A program made the translations under genes and the position numbers. Positions 39,458 to 60,741 of a stretch of DNA of 63,393 nt are shown piece after piece (the stretch's first letter is position 1; each line of letters starts with the position of its first letter). Origin of the DNA: Deltaproteobacteria bacterium UBA5799 (GTDB lineage Bacteria; Desulfobacterota; GWC2-55-46). Where the stretch lies: assembly GCA_002418185.1 (NCBI GenBank), contig DIDN01000022.1:1-63393 (forward strand), given 5' to 3'. The notes under the pieces were generated by a model. The model was not told the origin of the DNA. It did no database searches and worked only from the letters and a program-made list of their open reading frames with translations.

Positions 39458-39912
39458 CTAAATCTGTCCATTTTTGGTTGAAAATTCGGCATGCGGCCAC
39501 TCCAGGGAAAGTAGCTCGTCCATCCTCATTCCGGTATTCAGGTCGAAAATCACTATCTCCTGAAGCCAGTAACGGGGAATCTGGACGTTCTCTCCTTGCC
39601 GGTCGCGTAAATCACGCAAGCGTCAATGAGCCTATTTTCATCTTCCAGAGTAAGCCACCTGTCGCGTTCGTTCCTGACCTTCTCCCTTGATACCTTCTCG
39701 ACAGGGTTTTCCTTTACCCACTCCCATTCGCGGATTGCCTTCTTGAAGGCATGGCACAGGACGCCGCGCTGCGAGTTTATCGCGGCTGCGGCCACCCCCT
39801 TTGCCCTCAAGTGGGCTTTGTAGGCCGATATGCGTCCATGGGTGACCTGCGTGCCCAATATAATAACCTCTTTCTGCAAACCGCACTGGCTTTTGCATCC
39901 GTTGATTAGCAT
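39458..39912 (-). pseudogene. tyrosine recombinase (phage integrase) remnant, frameshifted and 3'-truncated
   Basis: Frame a (39553-39912) encodes a SAM-like core-binding domain (ISAYKAHLRAKGVAAAAINSQRGVLCHAFKKAI..WLTLEDENRLIDAC). Another frame continues YWLQEIVIFDLNTGMRMDELLSLEWPHAEF (catalytic Arg box) and stops at 39458. The HxxR and Tyr regions are absent. Confidence 0.8.
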
Positions 39913-40019: not shown

Positions 40020-40403
40020 TCATCCCTTTTCGTACTTCTCCATGTCTTCCTCGCTCAGGCCGAAGTAATGGCCTATCTCGTGGAGGACGGTCAGGCGTAT
40101 CTCTTCGAGGAGATCCTCTTTCGTGAAACAGGCGGACTCTATATTCCGCTTATAGAGCACAATCCTTTCTGGAAGCTGGCCTGTTGCGCCGCCGCACCAC
40201 TCCTGCTCAAAACGGGATATGCCGTGAAAGAGCCCGAAGAGTCCTTCGCGCGGGACCCCGGCGCTCTCAGCGTCATCTTCGGACGGGTAGTCCTCAACGA
40301 CCACGACGACGTTAGCCATGCGATTCCTGAACTCGTCGGGGAGGCTGTCCAGCACGTGAGCTGCCATTGCCCTGAAGTCCGCTTCTTTTACGATGTAAGC
40401 CAT
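40020..40403 (-). CDS. zincin-like minimal metallopeptidase (DUF1025/Zincin_1 family)
   Basis: HEIGHYFGLSEEDM motif near the C-terminus. The MAYIVKE start fits the family; the ORF extends to 40439. Confidence 0.75.
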   Translation of the reverse strand: MAYIVKEADFRAMAAHVLDSLPDEFRNRMANVVVVVEDYPSEDDAESAGVPREGLFGLFHGISRFEQEWCGGATGQLPERIVLYKRNIESACFTKEDLLEEIRLTVLHEIGHYFGLSEEDMEKYEKG

Positions 40404-40574
40404 ACCCTTAACTTTATTATTCTTCAAAGCGGAATTCAAGCGCCCTCTTCAGCCTTTCAAAGCTTATAATATAATCGGAGGCAGGTGCCCTCTGAAAACC
40501 GTCGGTGAAGGAAAGTGTGAGGATTTGAGGGAAATCAACGCTGCTTGATTTACGTATTGTTAGACAGACCCATG

Positions 40575-41714
40575 CTACCCTGCTTTTCCCTGCTCCGAGT
40601 GTTCCTTTTCAGTCTCGATTTGCGAGCACGATGATTTCACCTTCTCCCAGTCAGTTTCCGGCAGAAGCGGCTCGAATTTCTCAGTTGCGGGCCTCGTCTC
40701 AAGGTGCGCCTTCAGGCTCTCGATCCTCGCCAGTGTCGAAGGGTGCGTCGAGAGATAACTCAACAGTGTTTCCGCCCTGCTCTTTTTCTTTTTGCATTCG
40801 CATTCCCACAGGCGTTCGAAAAAAGTTATCAGGCCTTGCGGGTCTGTTCCCGACTCGACGAGAAGGTCGGCCCCGAGGCGGTCGGCCTCGTCCTCGAACT
40901 CTCTACTGTAGCTAAGGCTACCCAGGGTGCCTGCCGCGCTCGAGATGCCGTTGAAGTCTCCGAAGGCCGCCGCAAGAAGGAGCCCGGTCGAAAGCTCCCG
41001 GAGCATGCTCTGCGTCGAGTGCTTCAGGAGGATGTGCTGCATCTCGTGCGCCATCACACCTGCGAGCTCTTCTGGCGTTTCCATTGATTCGATAAGGCCG
41101 GAAAAGAGGACTATGTGGCCGCCGGGCGCCGCGAGGGCGTTAACCGCCGGGCTTTCCAGGGCATATACCCTGAACTCGTACGGGTGCCCGGGCGCAGCCG
41201 CCTCAAGCCGCTTGAGTATCGTTTCCGCAGCTTCCGCCAGCTCAGGTGATTCGCACTGCGGGACGGCGTCCGTAATGCCCTTTATCATGGACTGGCCAAG
41301 CCTGTCCTCGACCGATGGCGGGACCTTTTGCGCCGCGTACGCGGTGGATTTCGGAATGGCCCAGAAGTATACGCCTGCCACGATCAGCGCGGTAAGGGCA
41401 AGCGCCGCGGGTATTATGAAGAGGGTTTTCCGCGTCCTCTCAGGCCCGGCGAACCTCTTCCGGTGCCCGGGCGCGACCTCGCAGAGGCACCTGATGAACT
41501 CGGGGTCGTCTACGACTATGGCCTCGCGCCCCCGCTCGAGCCTGACCGGCTCTCCCTTATTGAAGCCCTGCGTCTGCCCGGTCTCGCTAAGGGGCCATGT
41601 TGCCGCGAAGCCTTCACCCTTTACGGACAGGCTCTCGGGCGAGACCGTTAGCTCGACCTCGTGCCTTTCGGCGGTCTTGCCGTCATAGTAATGCGCTTTC
41701 CAGAAGAGCTTCAT
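40575..41714 (-). CDS. M48-family zinc metallopeptidase with N-terminal non-catalytic domain and TM segment
   Basis: HEMQHI (HEXXH) with downstream EFEDEADRLG. Hydrophobic segment LFIIPAALALTALIVAGVYFW. Confidence 0.82.
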   Translation of the reverse strand: MKLFWKAHYYDGKTAERHEVELTVSPESLSVKGEGFAATWPLSETGQTQGFNKGEPVRLERGREAIVVDDPEFIRCLCEVAPGHRKRFAGPERTRKTLFIIPAALALTALIVAGVYFWAIPKSTAYAAQKVPPSVEDRLGQSMIKGITDAVPQCESPELAEAAETILKRLEAAAPGHPYEFRVYALESPAVNALAAPGGHIVLFSGLIESMETPEELAGVMAHEMQHILLKHSTQSMLRELSTGLLLAAAFGDFNGISSAAGTLGSLSYSREFEDEADRLGADLLVESGTDPQGLITFFERLWECECKKKKSRAETLLSYLSTHPSTLARIESLKAHLETRPATEKFEPLLPETDWEKVKSSCSQIETEKEHSEQGKAG

Positions 41715-41722
41715 TTATCCGC

Positions 41723-42901
41723 TTACATGGCAACATCGATGTCGAGGACGCCTGCAAGCCCTTCGCCGACCGCCTTTGCGCTCTGGGGCGCGTGCGCGAT
41801 CCCGGCGAAGTCGATCTCGCCCTTCATTGCCATGTGCCTGGAAAAGTAATTGATGCCGCGGACTACGACCCAGGGATACGCGAGGCCGAATGAGAGAAAG
41901 AGCAGAAGCATATTCCCGGCCAAAAAGGAAAAGAGCTGCCTGCCGGTCGCGTCGAAGCTGAAGCGAAGGCTGCCGAAATTCGTGTGCTGCCAGTCATAGC
42001 GGGCGACCTTGGCCGAGTACCATAGCCAGCAGAGGCCGAGGGTCGGTATGGTAAGGAGCCAGGCTTTGAGGAAGTCCTTTCTTATGTCACCGGCTTTGCC
42101 GTCATAGCTGAAGGAGCCGGTCCCGAAGTTGCTGTTTCCGCGCCAGAACCTCTCTTTCTCCGCATGGAAATACGGCCCGTAAAGGCCGAGCGTGACGAGC
42201 GAAAGGAGCGTGCCTTTGATATGTATCTTCATGAACTCCTTCGCGGTGCCGGAGAATGAAAAACTCGCGCCGTGCCAGTGGGTGCGGCTGAGCTTATACC
42301 TCCAGGCCCCGACCAAAACGGCCGGGAGCAACGCGAACATTATCGGGATTATGAGCAGTCCGAAGGCCGGGTGCACGAATGACGCGAGCGCGTTGGGTAC
42401 GCTCAAGACCACGGCGATTATAAGCATCGCCTTGAGCCAGCCTAAGAAAAGCTCCTTCCCGGTGCCGGAGAAGCTAAGCCTCTCGCCGAAGATTTCGGTT
42501 GAGCCGTACAGGTATTTTCTGATCTTTACCTTGCCCCAGAAGTGGTAGACGCCCAGGGTAAGGACAGAAAGGAGATTACTTACGACATAAAGCCGGAGCA
42601 GGGTAAGGCTTTTTCCGTGGAAGGAGACCTTCTGCGCAGGTGCCGGCTGCCTGGGTTTCGCGCCGGGGAGCGGAATTACCTTTGCACCCGGGGCCTGTAC
42701 GGCCGTTCCCTTCCCTGCCGCGTTCTCTTTCATTGCATTGGCTTCGAGAGGGACCGTGCGCTCCTCCTTCTTTTCCGGTTCGGGCTTGGAGATGTGGAAC
42801 TTGTGGCTGCATTTCGGGCAGGTCGCAGTGGTCGTCTGGAATTTCAGCGTCTGAGGGTCGATGTCCTTTTCAAATCGGCACTCCGGGCATGATATGCGCA
42901 A
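41723..42901 (-). CDS. N-terminal zinc-ribbon + YjgN/DUF898-family multi-pass membrane protein
   Basis: CPECRF...CPKCSHKF ribbon, then ~8 hydrophobic segments with duplicated F.G.G.ELF/W...L architecture typical of DUF898. 8-nt gap to the M48 gene. Confidence 0.7.
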   Translation of the reverse strand: MRISCPECRFEKDIDPQTLKFQTTTATCPKCSHKFHISKPEPEKKEERTVPLEANAMKENAAGKGTAVQAPGAKVIPLPGAKPRQPAPAQKVSFHGKSLTLLRLYVVSNLLSVLTLGVYHFWGKVKIRKYLYGSTEIFGERLSFSGTGKELFLGWLKAMLIIAVVLSVPNALASFVHPAFGLLIIPIMFALLPAVLVGAWRYKLSRTHWHGASFSFSGTAKEFMKIHIKGTLLSLVTLGLYGPYFHAEKERFWRGNSNFGTGSFSYDGKAGDIRKDFLKAWLLTIPTLGLCWLWYSAKVARYDWQHTNFGSLRFSFDATGRQLFSFLAGNMLLLFLSFGLAYPWVVVRGINYFSRHMAMKGEIDFAGIAHAPQSAKAVGEGLAGVLDIDVAM

Positions 42902-43208
42902 GGCAGGCCTCCTTTGATGAAATAGTCTTCAACTATTTCATATCGCCTGCCGGTAAATAAACTTTATTTATTTTTAAACGGGGAGTGTTTTGTTTAAGGA
43001 ACGGAAAACTTGTAAAAAGGACTTTAAGGGCTATCGGTGGGTTTTGACAGAATAGGGTGGGTAGATACAGAGCAGTGGATGAGAGAGGAGGCGCGATGAG
43101 GAAACGGAAATGGTGGGCGGAGGCCACCCTACGAGGCTTCAATCCTCAACTGGCTTCATTTTAGGCTTGACCGGCAAAACGGTATCTACCCGGCTGAGAT
43201 ATTTAAAA

Positions 43209-43240
43209 GCAAAAACCCCTCCCAAACTGCAGGAGGGGTT
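43209..43240 (-). terminator. rho-independent terminator of the AT-rich two-gene module
   Basis: Minus strand reads CCCCTCC-tgcagtttg-GGAGGGG followed by TTTTT, ~50 nt after the stop at 43287. An adjacent tandem aggaggggttag x2 lies at 43231-43255. Confidence 0.65.
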
Positions 43241-43286
43241 AGCAGGAGGGGTTAGAAGGAGACGAGCCACCTCTTTGGAATTTTTA

Positions 43287-43751
43287 TTAAGCGGCTAAGA
43301 GTTCTCCGTATTCTATCCTCACATTCTCTCGCTTCGCAAGCTCAATAGCTCGGAAATACATTTCCTTCCTACGCTCGTATTCTACAGAATTCATTATTTC
43401 TGTCGCGAGCCCGCTAGTCATTACAAGCTCAATTGCAGCTATTAAGGAAAAAAATTCTTTCTCTCCTAATTCAACCGCAAGAATTGATTTAAGACGCTCG
43501 AAAAAAAACTTAAATCCTTTAAGTTTAATTCCTACCAACTTTTTTTCATAAGGATGCCAAAGAACCGTCAAAAATTTATCTACCCGATCAGCCCTGTACG
43601 AGCAGTCTTCATTAAGATAGGTTAAGACATCCATTTCAGGAAAATAACGGGCTGCAGGCGTAAAATTTATTTCACTCCTGACTTCTTTTATTCCTGAAGA
43701 ACTTATCAAATCTTCAAAAAATGTGCCCATTTTCTCCACCTCCATTACCAT
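43287..43751 (-). CDS. hypothetical protein (147-154 aa), AT-rich gene, no recognised family
   Basis: A long ORF in ~35-40% G+C DNA, where stop codons are frequent. The likely start is ATG 43730 (MGTFFEDL), preceded by GGAGGTGGAG. The N-terminal part is faintly DUF2283-like (DVLTYL...LVGIKLKGF). Confidence 0.6.
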   Translation of the reverse strand: MVMEVEKMGTFFEDLISSSGIKEVRSEINFTPAARYFPEMDVLTYLNEDCSYRADRVDKFLTVLWHPYEKKLVGIKLKGFKFFFERLKSILAVELGEKEFFSLIAAIELVMTSGLATEIMNSVEYERRKEMYFRAIELAKRENVRIEYGELLAA

Positions 43752-44329
43752 ATTCGCTCATCATAGCGCACATCATAAAACGCCGGTAAAGTATTACATC
43801 TTTTATCAGCTAAAACCCATTCCCAATCTAAAATGATCCCAGAGGTTTTATCCTCTTTAAAAGAAACATAAGTTGCAAAAACAGAATCTATAGGCTGCGA
43901 TAGCCGAGTAGGTCCTACGACACTATATCGGTCTTTTTCCGGATAAATGTAGGTATGTTTAGGATTTGTAATATAGATATAAATTTCACCATCGTGACCA
44001 GTATCCTTAAAAGGTCTTTTAAGACCTTTGAATAGAGCAAAGGAATCAAGCAATCCATTTGTCCCTTGCATATCACATGTGGGATTAGCTTCTTCTACAT
44101 TGCCATGAACTAGCCCGCAATATTCTCCTATTTTGGCATTTAGAGAAAGGTCCATGAACTTTCTTATTATATCGGGATGAGCAGAAAGTTCAACATATTT
44201 GACCCTATCTTCTGGATGAGGAGCCAACACAACATTCGGGGTGGATCTATTGCTACGAGTAGTGGGTTGTATGATATTCATTACATTTGGACTCTTCTCA
44301 GAAGTTGTTAAACCTAGTTTTCTTAACAT
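43745..44329 (-). CDS. hypothetical protein (194 aa), AT-rich gene, no recognised family
   Basis: Long ORF in AT-rich DNA, directly 3' of tRNA-Ser. It overlaps or abuts the downstream ORF. No motif recognised. Confidence 0.6.
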   Translation of the reverse strand: MLRKLGLTTSEKSPNVMNIIQPTTRSNRSTPNVVLAPHPEDRVKYVELSAHPDIIRKFMDLSLNAKIGEYCGLVHGNVEEANPTCDMQGTNGLLDSFALFKGLKRPFKDTGHDGEIYIYITNPKHTYIYPEKDRYSVVGPTRLSQPIDSVFATYVSFKEDKTSGIILDWEWVLADKRCNTLPAFYDVRYDERIW

Positions 44330-44416
44330 GAATTTTATTTTTTGTCAAGTATTTCTTGATTATCATTGTTTCTAACAGAAATTTTCTTGCTATTTATACA
44401 TTTTCTAAATAAACTT

Positions 44417-44501
44417 TGGCGGAGGGTGAGGGACTCGAACCCCCAAGGGCGTTAGCCCGCCGGTTTTCAAGACCGGTGACTTACCATTAGCCTAACCCTC
44501 C
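44417..44501 (-). tRNA. tRNA-Ser (anticodon TGA), long variable arm, CCA encoded
   Basis: Reverse complement folds as GGAGGGT..CCGGT-CTTGAAA-ACCGG, variable arm CGGGCTAACGCCCTTG, T arm GGGGG-TTCGAGT-CCCTC, ACCCTCC-G-CCA. 85 nt. Confidence 0.92.
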
Positions 44502-44575
44502 GGTGTCATCTGGCGGGGATGGTGCTGGAAAGGTGTTGATGCCGGTTTGTTTTCATTTCTGAGCGCGTGAGTTTT

Positions 44576-44607
44576 GAGATTCTTCGCTGCGCTCAGAATG
44601 ACAGAAA
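44576..44607 (+). repeat. REP-like intergenic repeat, copy A
   Basis: gagattcttcgctgcgctcagaatgacagaaa. About 30 of 32 nt match copy B. Contains an attct...agaat inverted repeat. Confidence 0.7.
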
Positions 44608-44619
44608 CTTTCTTATAAA

Positions 44620-45939
<1,320 letters not shown>

Positions 45940-57872: not shown

Positions 57873-59120
57873 ATGGCCGATAAAGGCGTTTTTGGGGAGG
57901 TGCTTTTGGTCCTTGAAAAGGCGAACAGGCACCTGAACCTCCCCAGGTCCATATACGAACGGCTTAGGACCCCTAAGCGCTCGCTCATAGTCTCTGTCCC
58001 GGTAGAGCTGGACGACGGGTCGGTTGCGAACTTCGCCGGCTACAGGGTGCAGTACGATTTCGCGAGGGGGCCCGCAAAGGGCGGGGTCCGCTTCCACCCG
58101 AAGGTCGACCTGGACGAGATGACCGCGCTCGCCGCGCTCATGACCTGGAAATGCGCCCTGGTGGACATACCCTTCGGCGGCGCAAAAGGGGGGGTTGCCT
58201 GCGACCCGACCGTCTTGAGCAGGCGCGAGCTCGAAAGGCTCACGAGGAGGTACACCTACGAAATCGGCCTATTCATTGGCCCCGAGTCCGACATACCAGC
58301 GCCCGACGTCTATACCGACGAGCAGGTGATGGCCTGGATGATGGACACCTATTCCATGATGAAGGGATATTCGGTCCCGGGCGTGGTGACAGGCAAGCCC
58401 GTAAGCCTCGGCGGCTCGCTCGGCAGGAACAAAGCCACCTCGACCGGGCTCGTAACCGTCGTCCTCGAGACGCTCAAGCACCTGGAGACAGAGGCCGAGG
58501 GGCTCTCGGCCACGCTGCTCGGCTTCGGCAAGGTCGGGCTTAACGCTGCTTACATGCTCGAAGAGGCAGGGGTCAGGATAATCGGGGTAGCCGATTCGAA
58601 GGGCGGGGCATACAACCCGCAGGGGCTCGATATAAAGGAGCTCGCCCGCCATAAACGCGCATCCGACACGGTGCAGGGCTTCAGGGGCGCGGAGGACCTC
58701 TCCTTCGACGAGCTCATATCCATTGAGACCGACATCCTGATACCGGCCGCACTCGAAGGGCAGATAAACGCCTCGAACGCGCACCTGGTCAAGACGAAGA
58801 TCCTGGCCGAAGGCGCGAACTCGCCCCTTACGGCGGAAGCTGACGAGCTCCTTGGCTCGAAGGGCGTCTTCATCATACCCGACATACTGGCGAATGCCGG
58901 TGGGGTGGTCGTCTCGTATTTCGAATGGGTCCAGGGGCTTCAGAGGTTCTTCTGGGACGAGGCCGAGGTGGATGAGCGCCTTTCTGCCGTTATGAAAAGG
59001 GCTTTTCACGAGGTCCTCGCGCTATCCAGGGACAAGGGCATGGACATGAGGACCGCCGCCATGGTGCTCGGGGTAAAAAAGGTGGCCGACGCGGTCCAGA
59101 TAAGGGGGCTATATCCATGA
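57873..59120 (+). CDS. gdhA: Glu/Leu/Phe/Val-family glutamate dehydrogenase
   Basis: IPFGGAKGGV lysine motif and Rossmann GFGKVG. 415 aa. Confidence 0.92.
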   Translation: MADKGVFGEVLLVLEKANRHLNLPRSIYERLRTPKRSLIVSVPVELDDGSVANFAGYRVQYDFARGPAKGGVRFHPKVDLDEMTALAALMTWKCALVDIPFGGAKGGVACDPTVLSRRELERLTRRYTYEIGLFIGPESDIPAPDVYTDEQVMAWMMDTYSMMKGYSVPGVVTGKPVSLGGSLGRNKATSTGLVTVVLETLKHLETEAEGLSATLLGFGKVGLNAAYMLEEAGVRIIGVADSKGGAYNPQGLDIKELARHKRASDTVQGFRGAEDLSFDELISIETDILIPAALEGQINASNAHLVKTKILAEGANSPLTAEADELLGSKGVFIIPDILANAGGVVVSYFEWVQGLQRFFWDEAEVDERLSAVMKRAFHEVLALSRDKGMDMRTAAMVLGVKKVADAVQIRGLYP

Positions 59121-59335: not shown

Positions 59336-59409
59336 CTTCCGGCGGAAGTGCAATCGTTCTGGCCTCGTTTGCCCCTCTCTATCCAGAGCTGCCGGAACCC
59401 GTGGAGCAA

Positions 59410-60741
59410 ATGGATTCCGAAGCGATCTGGAAAAACTGCCTTGAAACGATAGAAACTCACGTAAGCCCGCAGCACATTGCCACGTGGTTCAAGCCCATAA
59501 AGGTGCTGGGCGGGAACTCCTCCCGCATCGACCTGGAAGTGCCGAACCGTTTTTTCCTCGAGTGGATAAAGGAGCACTATCTCGTGCTCCTGGAGGATGT
59601 GCTCCGGAAGGTCTCGAAGAAAGGGGTTGAGCTCGCCTGGTCGGTCGGCGACGAGTCCCAGGCCGCCCCCCTGAAGAAGCGCGAGAAGGAAGGCGGCAAG
59701 GCGCCGAGGCAGGCCGGCTCGACGCTCAACGGCAAGTACACCTTTGAAAACTTCGTCGTGGGCAAGGCCAACGAGTTCGCCCATGCCGCCTGCTCGGCCG
59801 CAGCCGGAAACCTCGGGAGCAAGTACAACCCGCTCTTCATCTACGGCTGCGTGGGCCTCGGCAAGACCCACCTCCTCCAGGCCATAGGACACAAGGTGCT
59901 CGCCGCGAGCCCCGGCGCCAAGGTCTGCTATTACACCTCCGAGCGCTTCGTGAACGACTTCATAAACTATGTAAGCCGCCAGAAGATGAGCGAGTTCAGG
60001 AGCAGGTTCAGGAACGTGGACGTGCTCCTCATCGACGACATACAGTTCTGGGCCGGCAAGGAAGGCACCCAGGAGGAGTTCTTCCACACCTTCAACACCC
60101 TGTATGAAAACCACAAGCAGATAGTGGTGACGAGCGACAAGTTTCCCAAGGACCTTAACGGCCTCGAAGAGAGGCTCAGGTCGCGCTTCGAGTGGGGGCT
60201 TGTGGCGGACATACAGCCGCCCGATACAGAGACCAAGATAGCGATACTCAGGAAAAAGGCGAAGTCCGAGGGGGTGAAGCTCCCGGACGACGTGGCCGGC
60301 TGGCTCTCGGAGGTGAGCGGCTCAAACGTAAGGGAGCTCGAGGGCTTTCTTAACAGGATAATAGCCGTATCGAGCCTTACGAACCGCGAGATCGACCTTG
60401 CCATGGCCAGGGAGGCGCTCAAGAACCTCATAAAGGAGATGGAGGAGAAGGTCTTCACCATAGACGAAATACAGAAGGCCGTCTCCTCGTTCTATGATAT
60501 AAAGACATCGGAGCTAAAGAGCAAGAGAAGGCACCAGAAAATTGCGCTCCCGAGGCAGATTGCCATGTTTCTCGCAAGGGAGTACGGCGGCTTCTCTTAC
60601 CCGGAGATAGGCTCGTCCTTTGGCGGCAAGGACCACTCGACGGCCATACACGCCTGCAAGAAAATAGAGAAGGCGGTCAAGGAGAATGCGGAGGTCAGGC
60701 AGGCCGTGAGGTCTCTCAAGCAGAACCTCGGCATAAGGTAG
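59410..60741 (+). CDS. dnaA: chromosomal replication initiator DnaA
   Basis: MDSEAIWKNCLE N-terminus, Walker A GCVGLGKTHLL, C-terminal DNA-binding DHSTAIHACKKI. A GTG at 59401 is an alternative start. Confidence 0.96.
   Translation: MDSEAIWKNCLETIETHVSPQHIATWFKPIKVLGGNSSRIDLEVPNRFFLEWIKEHYLVLLEDVLRKVSKKGVELAWSVGDESQAAPLKKREKEGGKAPRQAGSTLNGKYTFENFVVGKANEFAHAACSAAAGNLGSKYNPLFIYGCVGLGKTHLLQAIGHKVLAASPGAKVCYYTSERFVNDFINYVSRQKMSEFRSRFRNVDVLLIDDIQFWAGKEGTQEEFFHTFNTLYENHKQIVVTSDKFPKDLNGLEERLRSRFEWGLVADIQPPDTETKIAILRKKAKSEGVKLPDDVAGWLSEVSGSNVRELEGFLNRIIAVSSLTNREIDLAMAREALKNLIKEMEEKVFTIDEIQKAVSSFYDIKTSELKSKRRHQKIALPRQIAMFLAREYGGFSYPEIGSSFGGKDHSTAIHACKKIEKAVKENAEVRQAVRSLKQNLGIR

Follow-up and report, generated by a model that had tools for sequence, protein, structure and literature searches.

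Several described bacterial systems share features with the locus considered here. In the SocAB system, the toxin SocB is a substrate of the ClpXP protease and SocA serves as its adaptor (PMC5422525). A terminal Ala-Ala is the critical element of ssrA-like ClpXP degrons, which conform to the consensus [L/F/Y/W]-[L/A/R]-L-A-A (PMC10862746). Furthermore, Mukai et al. (2017, PMC5389517) reported that irregular and suppressor tRNAs in soil metagenomes are often close to toxin-antitoxin loci. The current report concerns a stretch of DNA from Deltaproteobacteria bacterium UBA5799 (contig DIDN01000022.1, positions 1 to 63,393; hereafter the window), and specifically two short genes, here called A and B, which are located in a sharply AT-rich segment that begins at the 3' end of a tRNA-Ser gene.

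Overall, A and B constitute a mobile and strictly paired family pair that is observed across approximately 18 contexts. Judging from sequence comparisons and predicted structures, they appear to be two widespread protein families not described before, which lie outside every described family and whose predicted folds are unmatched.

Two unannotated families that occur as a pair

Gene A (43745–44329, minus strand) is an open reading frame (ORF) of 194 amino acids (aa), and gene B (43287–43751, minus strand) is an ORF of 154 aa that overlaps A by 7 nucleotides (nt) at 43745–43751. Both same-strand ORFs and their overlap or abutment had been noted in an earlier inspection of the DNA letters conducted without database searches (the sequence-only reading). 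The true start of A is plausibly ATG 44281, which would yield a protein of 178 aa, because the family's conserved core does not start until residue 23 and predicted local distance difference test (pLDDT) scores are low over the first 20 residues. Similarly, B probably starts at its eighth codon (ATG 43730), which would yield 147 aa and leave a 14-nt gap after the A stop codon, because this ATG is preceded by the Shine-Dalgarno-like sequence GGAGGTGGAG (43732–43741, minus strand) and because most homologues begin there. The ribosome-binding site that had been recognized before the second ORF is this same element.

When 1.84 billion cluster representatives were searched exhaustively with a profile, 323 relatives of A were found with E ≤ 1e-3, each representing a cluster at 50% identity, including 148 with E ≤ 1e-10 and 35 with E ≤ 1e-30. 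A word-indexed search of 5.8 billion proteins recovered 3 relatives of A and at least 35 relatives of B. The 76-sequence profile of A was too divergent for pattern-based locus scans, and a word-indexed search with this profile added only a few proteins, all without a name. These relatives come mostly from uncultivated bacteria of soil, sediment, and freshwater, and their database name is always "hypothetical protein," including that of one from a SAR324 metagenome-assembled genome (MAG). Given the number of relatives, the original description of the two genes as orphans had to be abandoned in favor of families that are conserved and unannotated.

The failure to recognize a domain by eye in either protein is matched by the outcome of systematic searches. 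The window proteins have no match in Pfam, NCBIfam, PHROGs, or PADLOC, and no consistent Pfam match is present among the 76 members of the A alignment or the 36 members of the B alignment. There is likewise no meaningful match to PADLOC-DB v2 in 111 family members, where stray sub-threshold PtuA matches were seen in two (best E = 7.7e-4).

To examine pairing, hidden Markov models (HMMs) of both families were applied to six-frame translations of each fetched locus, and approximately 18 independent contexts remained after duplicates were removed. In every one of the 35 loci with sequence, gene A directly precedes B in the same orientation, and the arrangement is the same at L117 and L120 (L numbers designate the loci compared). 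The adjacency of homologues, which the sequence-only reading had proposed as a check, is therefore kept throughout this set. In 15 of 16 loci, the distance from the A stop codon to the B start codon ranges from a 16-nt overlap to a 31-nt gap, and several loci have ATGA overlaps. The divergence of A and that of B are correlated across loci (r = 0.48).

The genes that flank the pair are unrelated from locus to locus, and include the str ribosomal operon, cobN, dnaN-gyrB, pyrF, a gene for mannose-1-phosphate guanylyltransferase, and TamAB. At most loci, the G+C content of A-B is 0.04–0.20 below that of the flanks. IS1595 transposase genes lie directly beside the pair at three independent loci (L008, 8529–9419; L094, 5112–6002; L106, 8386–9396), and decayed copies or copies interrupted by an insertion sequence (IS) occur, as when a DDE_Tnp_1 element disrupts B in L110/L111. 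In L004, the pair belongs to an integrase island at tRNA-Tyr(GUA), where the adjoining helicase matches models of type IV restriction and of PbeA (E = 4e-17). At L117 it is found in a relaxase/KfrA/primase conjugative element that carries GAPS4, and at L120 a gene resembling an SNase effector is nearby. A DUF5343 gene, which corresponds to the PADLOC candidate PDC-M34A (E = 2.7e-9), shares the strand of A and comes directly before it in L094 (6398–7102) and L010 (5984–6679), and DUF5343-A-B may be an occasional three-gene arrangement. The sequence-only reading had proposed testing whether homologous pairs lie in defence islands or prophages. Mobile or defence neighbors are present at several loci, and the pair was not found in the phage genomes or viral contigs searched.

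Predicted structures and conserved residues

Both proteins appear to be real folded proteins, because their AlphaFold models are confident and compact. The AlphaFold2 model of A (pLDDT 89.8; predicted template modeling score 0.83) depicts what would be a cytoplasmic alpha/beta protein, in which two strands and two helices are followed by a seven-stranded antiparallel region. Among 76 diverse sequences, residues R105 and R188 are invariant; W169, G102, P146, and P182 are 99% conserved; Y119 and Y189 are conserved in about 91% (otherwise Phe); and E170 is conserved in 87%. No Foldseek match with E ≤ 0.001 was found for A in the Protein Data Bank (PDB) or BFVD, a PDB sequence profile search was empty, and the longer members of the family (215–245 aa) yielded no informative fused domains. 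The best viral fold match, to a PolyVal ADP-ribosyltransferase (ART), is not significant (E = 0.096, template modeling score 0.30). Assignment of A to the ADP-ribosyltransferases, which an H-G motif had also hinted at, was rejected on this basis, as no ART appears among the PDB matches, H75 and S149 are only 67% and 66% conserved, and there is thus no conserved H-Y-E/R-S-E triad.

The AlphaFold2 model of B (pLDDT 90.3) predicts a highly conserved five-stranded beta domain (residues 31–80 or, more narrowly, 33–78) followed by a 45-residue helix (97–141). The family alignment reveals invariant residues S51, R56, T62, L64, H66, P67, G74, K76, and K78, together with a dozen further near-invariant positions inside the 50-residue beta domain. 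The protein from the window ends with the residues LLAA. Of 44 distinct B homologues of full length, 38 (86%) have a terminal Ala-Ala, with variable residues before it. As with A, there was no Foldseek match with E ≤ 0.001 in the PDB, and the PDB sequence profile search returned nothing. The faint DUF2283-like beta pattern that had been suspected near the start of B was not upheld. None of the 36 B members matches PF10049 at E ≤ 0.1, the isolated beta domain gives no match at E ≤ 10, and hhalign assigns a probability of 1.4% over 9 columns, using a consensus that Pfam confirmed as PF10049 (E = 7.7e-27).

A foreign segment at the 3' end of tRNA-Ser(UGA)

The sequence-only reading had estimated a sharp drop in G+C content between the 3' end of tRNA-Ser and a strong terminator, and had taken the segment to be horizontally acquired. 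Quantitative measures agree on both counts. Over the 1130 nt from 43287 to 44416, the G+C content is 36.3% versus a mean of 58.3 ± 4.2% for other 1130-nt windows (z = -5.2), which is the lowest value anywhere in the 63-kb window. The tetranucleotide L1 distance to the profile of the window is 0.748 for this segment versus 0.335 ± 0.061, again the most deviant value observed. The G+C content at third codon positions (GC3) is 0.27 for A and 0.35 for B versus 0.73–0.85 for the neighboring genes (serS, degP, clpB, M48, DUF898), and the genes of the segment lie at a codon-usage distance of about 1.0 from a host reference set versus 0.3–0.5 for the neighbors, the largest codon deviation in the window. 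Because of these deviations in G+C, tetranucleotide, codon-usage, and GC3 values, the AT-rich segment is clearly of foreign origin.

The proximal boundary of the foreign DNA is the 3' end of tRNA-Ser(UGA) (44417–44501, minus strand), an 85-nt class II tRNA with an encoded CCA that was identified by ARAGORN and by Rfam (RF00005, 57.6 bits). The serS gene (44620–45897, minus strand) is directly upstream. Among 75 serS loci drawn from a diversity of phyla, 26 have a tRNA-Ser within 600 nt after serS, and the isoacceptor is always UGA. Because the serS-tRNA-Ser(UGA) arrangement is widespread, the tRNA is regarded as the host's own, and the AT-rich DNA as an insert at its 3' end. The nearest SerS proteins in species-representative genomes (Deltaproteobacteria, Acidobacteria, and Nitrospirota MAGs) are 65% identical, which is too distant for an empty-site comparison. 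As a separate observation, a tRNA-Ser(GCU) often comes next after serS-tRNA-Ser(UGA) in the other serS loci (L011–L090), sometimes with a tRNA-Arg(ACG) as well; in the window (44417–45897) there is only the UGA tRNA, and the GCU tRNA is absent where the foreign DNA now sits.

A candidate attachment site (att) or target-site duplication is provided by a 12-nt exact direct repeat, TAAATAAACTTT. The proximal copy (44406–44417) abuts the last base of the tRNA, with a 1-nt overlap, and the distal copy (42954–42965) lies in the AT-rich spacer that immediately precedes the DUF898 gene. Composition-preserving shuffles indicate that its recurrence by chance has P ~8e-4. The 30-nt tRNA 3' end does not recur within 6 kb, even when up to 7 mismatches are allowed. 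If the two copies of TAAATAAACTTT are the true boundaries, the islet would span 1452 nt, including approximately 320 nt of non-coding DNA (42966–43286) that has no counterpart in other A-B loci. If composition is the only guide, the foreign part is 43270–44416 and the terminator may belong to the host.

An 87-nt leader and promoter region (44330–44416, minus strand) with a G+C content of 22–30% separates the tRNA 3' end from the first ATG of A. It carries a perfect TTGACA at 44348–44343 and GATAAT at 44364–44359, and neither a promoter scan nor reading of the sequence found a canonical -35/-10 pair in it. A terminator scan detected no terminator between tRNA-Ser and A, and therefore read-through from serS-tRNA is possible. 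The best sigma-70-like promoter of the region (44166–44193, minus strand; TTGAAC, 16 nt, TATAAT; 10/12) is within the coding sequence of A, approximately 415 nt upstream of B, and the number of such sites is near that expected from shuffled sequences (5 versus 3.6).

The strong terminator that had been recognized by eye proved to be an intrinsic terminator at 43214–43240 (minus strand), in which a G+C-rich hairpin of 10–11 bp with a predicted RNA folding energy of -24.6 kcal/mol is followed by the U-run UUUUUGCUUUU. It closes the A-B unit and is the only terminator in it, being placed after B, so the description of the segment as a self-terminated bicistron of two co-oriented genes is accurate. 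A perfect 13-nt tandem duplication, in which GCAGGAGGGGTTA occurs twice (43229–43254), overlaps the 5' arm of the terminator stem. This duplication gives the 3' arm of the terminator two alternative pairing partners.

The flanks contain no non-coding elements conserved across loci, and Rfam gives no known RNA family besides tRNA; a single sub-threshold match, to ylbH, falls inside a coding region. A 23-nt imperfect repeat (43170–43192 versus 43564–43586; RVDTVLPV) was considered as an old B-like remnant and was rejected as a chance resemblance, and a tblastn search with all family members was empty.

Unusual tRNAs near related pairs

A tRNA gene lies within 550 nt of A-B in 4 of the approximately 18 independent contexts (binomial P ~1e-3 versus a background of 2.6%). 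All four of these neighboring tRNAs, tRNA-Ser(UGA) of the window among them, have the anticodon loop CUU(G/U)AAA, and they score 58–64 bits against the Rfam tRNA model. In two contexts the tRNA has the anticodon UUA (L008, 6911–6996; L009, 6905–6989; minus strand). These are class II tRNAs with A73, located 435–533 nt upstream of A-B and accompanied by different flanking genes. They differ by compensatory changes in three stems (acceptor, anticodon, and variable) and have identical CUUUAAA loops. Because L008 uses TAA as a normal stop codon, and more commonly than any other (6 of 11 genes), the UUA tRNA of this locus would be a true ochre suppressor.

Another context, represented by four related loci, carries a 74-nt UGA tRNA (L093, 2093–2166; L094 and L096, 8562–8635; L095, 4870–4943 (-)) that is of class I and has no long variable arm. 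This tRNA, which has a G2.A71 mismatch and U73, is separated from the end of B by 127 nt. Either it is irregular, or integration altered its 3' end. In about 14 of the 18 contexts no tRNA is close by, and where one is present, its side, strand, and distance vary from case to case. When co-movement of the tRNA with A-B was considered, DNA homology between L008 and L009 was found to span the tRNA and the genes and to stop at the spacers. The simplest reading is that tRNA genes are integration hot spots for A-B.

Neighborhood of the pair in the window

The sequence-only reading had stated that no integrase is attached to the module. This is correct for the AT-rich segment itself, which has no integrase. 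However, a frameshifted and shortened tyrosine integrase pseudogene (39458–39912, minus strand) is located in a patch of lower G+C content 3.4 kb beyond B. The remnant matches site-specific integrases of phages (D3-type) and plasmids over 90–98% of 126 residues, with E values down to 5e-11, and it ends right after the first catalytic-arginine motif. The genes that separate it from A-B (zincin-like, M48 peptidase, and DUF898) resemble the host in codon usage. Because of these host-like intervening genes, and because there is no second copy of the tRNA 3' end, the remnant is best viewed as an older event at the same hot spot and not as the vehicle of A-B. For the same reasons of codon usage and a missing att copy, a single large island reaching from the tRNA to the integrase remnant is unsupported.

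The intervening trio (40020–42901, minus strand), which looks conserved, lies just distal to the islet and encodes a zincin-like protein of 139 aa with a HEIGH motif, an M48 peptidase with DUF7092, and a zinc-ribbon DUF898 membrane protein. Elsewhere in the window are the genes for glutamate dehydrogenase (57873–59120, plus strand) and dnaA (59401–60741, plus strand), and their presence places the window near a chromosomal origin. In L008 and L009, too, A-B is within a few kb of dnaA-dnaN-gyrB. Weak tblastn matches in the right order had hinted at a second, divergent A-B pair at 58.2–59.1 kb (minus strand). These matches are spurious, as they fall antisense to the 415-aa glutamate dehydrogenase gene in DNA of normal G+C content.

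Proposed function and competing explanations

By analogy, a compact, translationally coupled bicistron that is scattered without linked pathway genes would be the footprint of a toxin-antitoxin or abortive-infection system. We lean tentatively toward the reading that A and B form a toxin-antitoxin-like addiction or abortive-infection cassette in which A is the effector and B is its labile neutralizer, with a confidence that stops short of calling it probable. According to this proposal, the A-B operon would have been recently acquired as a self-contained unit and inserted at the 3' end of the host tRNA-Ser(UGA). Protein A would be a growth-arresting effector, for which R105, R188, E170, Y119, and Y189 are candidate residues of an active or binding site, and B would bind and neutralize A via its conserved beta domain. 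B is proposed as the labile partner because the Ala-Ala end is near-universal in its homologues; such a tail, if ssrA-like and of the ClpXP type, would keep B short-lived, and loss of the element or a phage-induced shut-off of expression would then set A free. Toxicity, binding between A and B, proteolytic lability, and the choice of effector are the steps that we infer.

Several lines of evidence weigh against the cassette proposal. Neither protein resembles a known toxin, antitoxin, or defence protein in sequence and structure searches (Pfam, NCBIfam, PHROGs, PADLOC, PDB, and BFVD), and no helix-turn-helix (HTH), ribbon-helix-helix (RHH), AbrB, or Phd DNA-binding domain was detected in either one. 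Both families are mildly acidic (median isoelectric points of 6.0 and 5.5), unlike basic RNase toxins or DNA-binding antitoxins. The order in which the larger protein, and the toxin, comes first is the less common one. Furthermore, B is more conserved than A (mean identity of 40.5% versus 32.4%; higher for B in 110 of 120 locus pairs), and a conserved antitoxin with dense invariant charged residues is opposite to the usual type II pattern. The window neighborhood consists of housekeeping genes and is not a defence island. Also, tblastn searches with the window proteins and central family members found no A-B in 72,556 plasmids, 50,697 phages, or 2.9 million viral contigs, including IMG/VR. Finally, the antepenultimate residue is K, E, or Q in many B homologues, and Ala-Ala is necessary, not sufficient, for ClpXP recognition (PMC10862746).

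Some of these same features make the polarity of the pair uncertain, in that the conservation of B, its downstream position, the acidity of both proteins, and the lack of a DNA-binding domain fit a SocAB-like arrangement at least as well. In such a type VI (SocAB)-like system, B would by analogy be the effector, removed by ClpXP via its Ala-Ala end, and A would be an antitoxin, adaptor, or inhibitor. In favor of reversed polarity, B is better conserved than A and has many invariant polar residues within its 50-residue domain; it also bears the degron-like Ala-Ala and occupies the canonical toxin position downstream. However, the likeness to a ClpXP-substrate toxin is limited to the Ala-Ala of the conserved partner, no Pfam or NCBIfam family matches A or B, and A is a globular protein of 180 aa with invariant arginines that seems more enzyme-like than a simple adaptor. 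We rate this alternative as decidedly doubtful. Somewhat unlikely, with a real chance of being correct, is that A and B are non-toxic, two-subunit accessory cargo of mobile elements, such as a regulatory, anti-defence, or stress heterodimer, in which Ala-Ala serves turnover or partner binding. Acidic proteins without nucleic-acid-binding or known toxin features, both well conserved and co-evolving, would suit such a role. The many plain housekeeping contexts (str operon, cobN, dnaN-gyrB, serS) would suit it also, as would the absence of the pair from the plasmids and phages sequenced, which usually abound in addiction modules. Countering this, scattered single-copy foreign insertions without pathway genes are typical of selfish or defence cassettes, neighbors of the IS, integrase, integrative and conjugative element (ICE), and defence types recur, and decayed or IS-interrupted copies are known among the loci.

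A functional link to the neighboring tRNAs, whereby the pair would act on or depend on tRNAs with U-N-A anticodons through cleavage, modification, or a co-carried ochre suppressor, strikes us as quite improbable. The four tRNA-adjacent contexts with their shared loop, the fifth island at tRNA-Tyr(GUA), and the report of suppressor or irregular tRNAs near toxin-antitoxin loci (PMC5389517) are what invite this idea. It must be set against the majority of contexts that have no tRNA, the varied side, strand, and distance of those that do, and the failure of L008/L009 homology to cross the spacer from tRNA to A. In addition, the tRNA of the window is the native one after serS, tRNA 3' ends are generic integration hot spots with a degraded integrase nearby in this case, and the pattern was noticed post hoc. 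A more ambitious proposal, which seems a very long shot, is that A-B represents a new class of mobile two-gene systems, with two unseen folds and ClpXP-timed B, that is tied to tRNAs reading codons that start with U. On that proposal, A might cleave or modify the CUU(G/U)AAA loop of tRNA-Ser(UGA), and the ochre-suppressor or atypical tRNA that some elements co-carry might replace it in resistant form, serve as a decoy, or act as a switch for read-through. Least credible, to the point of being hardly worth entertaining, is the notion that the ORFs are chance frames in AT-rich junk or decayed prophage scrap. The lack of family annotation and the paucity of G+C-rich stop-free constraints in AT-rich DNA could be cited for it. 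It is refuted by conservation, with hundreds of homologues under purifying selection and invariant residues, and it is further contradicted by the confident AlphaFold models and by the conserved pairing and spacing. AT-rich DNA is also rich in stop codons, which makes frames of 194 and 154 codons unexpected.

Implications

Conserved hypothetical pairs in genomic islands are common. This one is a good experimental target by virtue of its unmatched folds, the Ala-Ala on the more conserved partner, and its unusual tRNA company. If the toxin-antitoxin or defence reading is true, a widespread family pair (323 A clusters) would join that repertoire, and its lack of a link to known toxins and antitoxins means that it could bring new effector chemistry. 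The near-universal Ala-Ala of B offers a testable handle on proteolytic timing and on the identity of the effector. Should the pair prove to be harmless cargo, the locus would still be a clear case of a minimal islet that occupies a tRNA hot spot without an integrase. The tRNAs with U-N-A anticodons that recur near A-B, which include stop-reading UUA tRNAs in genomes where TAA is a normal stop codon, provide a separate lead on natural suppressor tRNAs that are carried with selfish cassettes.

Comparison with known systems

Among described systems, type II toxin-first modules such as higBA, mqsRA, and hicAB resemble A-B in having two small, co-transcribed, and often overlapping genes. They also resemble it in being scattered as mobile, single-copy insertions with tRNA, IS, integrase, ICE, or defence neighbors, and in having one partner (here B) with a tail like those recognized by proteases. 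In contrast to these modules, A-B shows no homology to known toxins or antitoxins and lacks a recognizable DNA-binding domain with which to autoregulate; its two proteins are acidic, and conservation is higher in B, the putative antitoxin, than in A. The resemblance to SocAB of Caulobacter (type VI) lies in the conserved downstream B, which bears a ClpXP-type terminal motif as expected if the toxin is the protease substrate. However, SocB recognition requires the SocA adaptor and not a plain ssrA-like tail, and a role for A as adaptor would rest on analogy. Pairs of DUF4258 and DUF2283 proteins offer a further parallel, as B has a short beta-rich domain with an L-V-G-I-(K/E) strand, but B is twice as long as DUF2283 and has a long helical half, and A is not DUF4258.

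At the level of DNA, the locus is similar to tRNA-associated genomic islets in its compositional break exactly at the tRNA 3' end, its short direct repeat, and the degraded integrase nearby. It differs from them in its small size (1.1–1.45 kb) without an integrase of its own, in a repeat that excludes the 3' segment of the tRNA, and in the host-like genes that lie between A-B and the integrase remnant. Similarly, the company kept by related A-B loci, which adjoin UUA tRNAs or an atypical 74-nt UGA tRNA, recalls the tRNAs described by Mukai et al. (2017) (PMC5389517), whereas the tRNAs at A-B loci are canonical 7/5 cloverleaves and not 8/4 or 9/3 allo-tRNAs, and the tRNA of the window is an ordinary tRNA-Ser.

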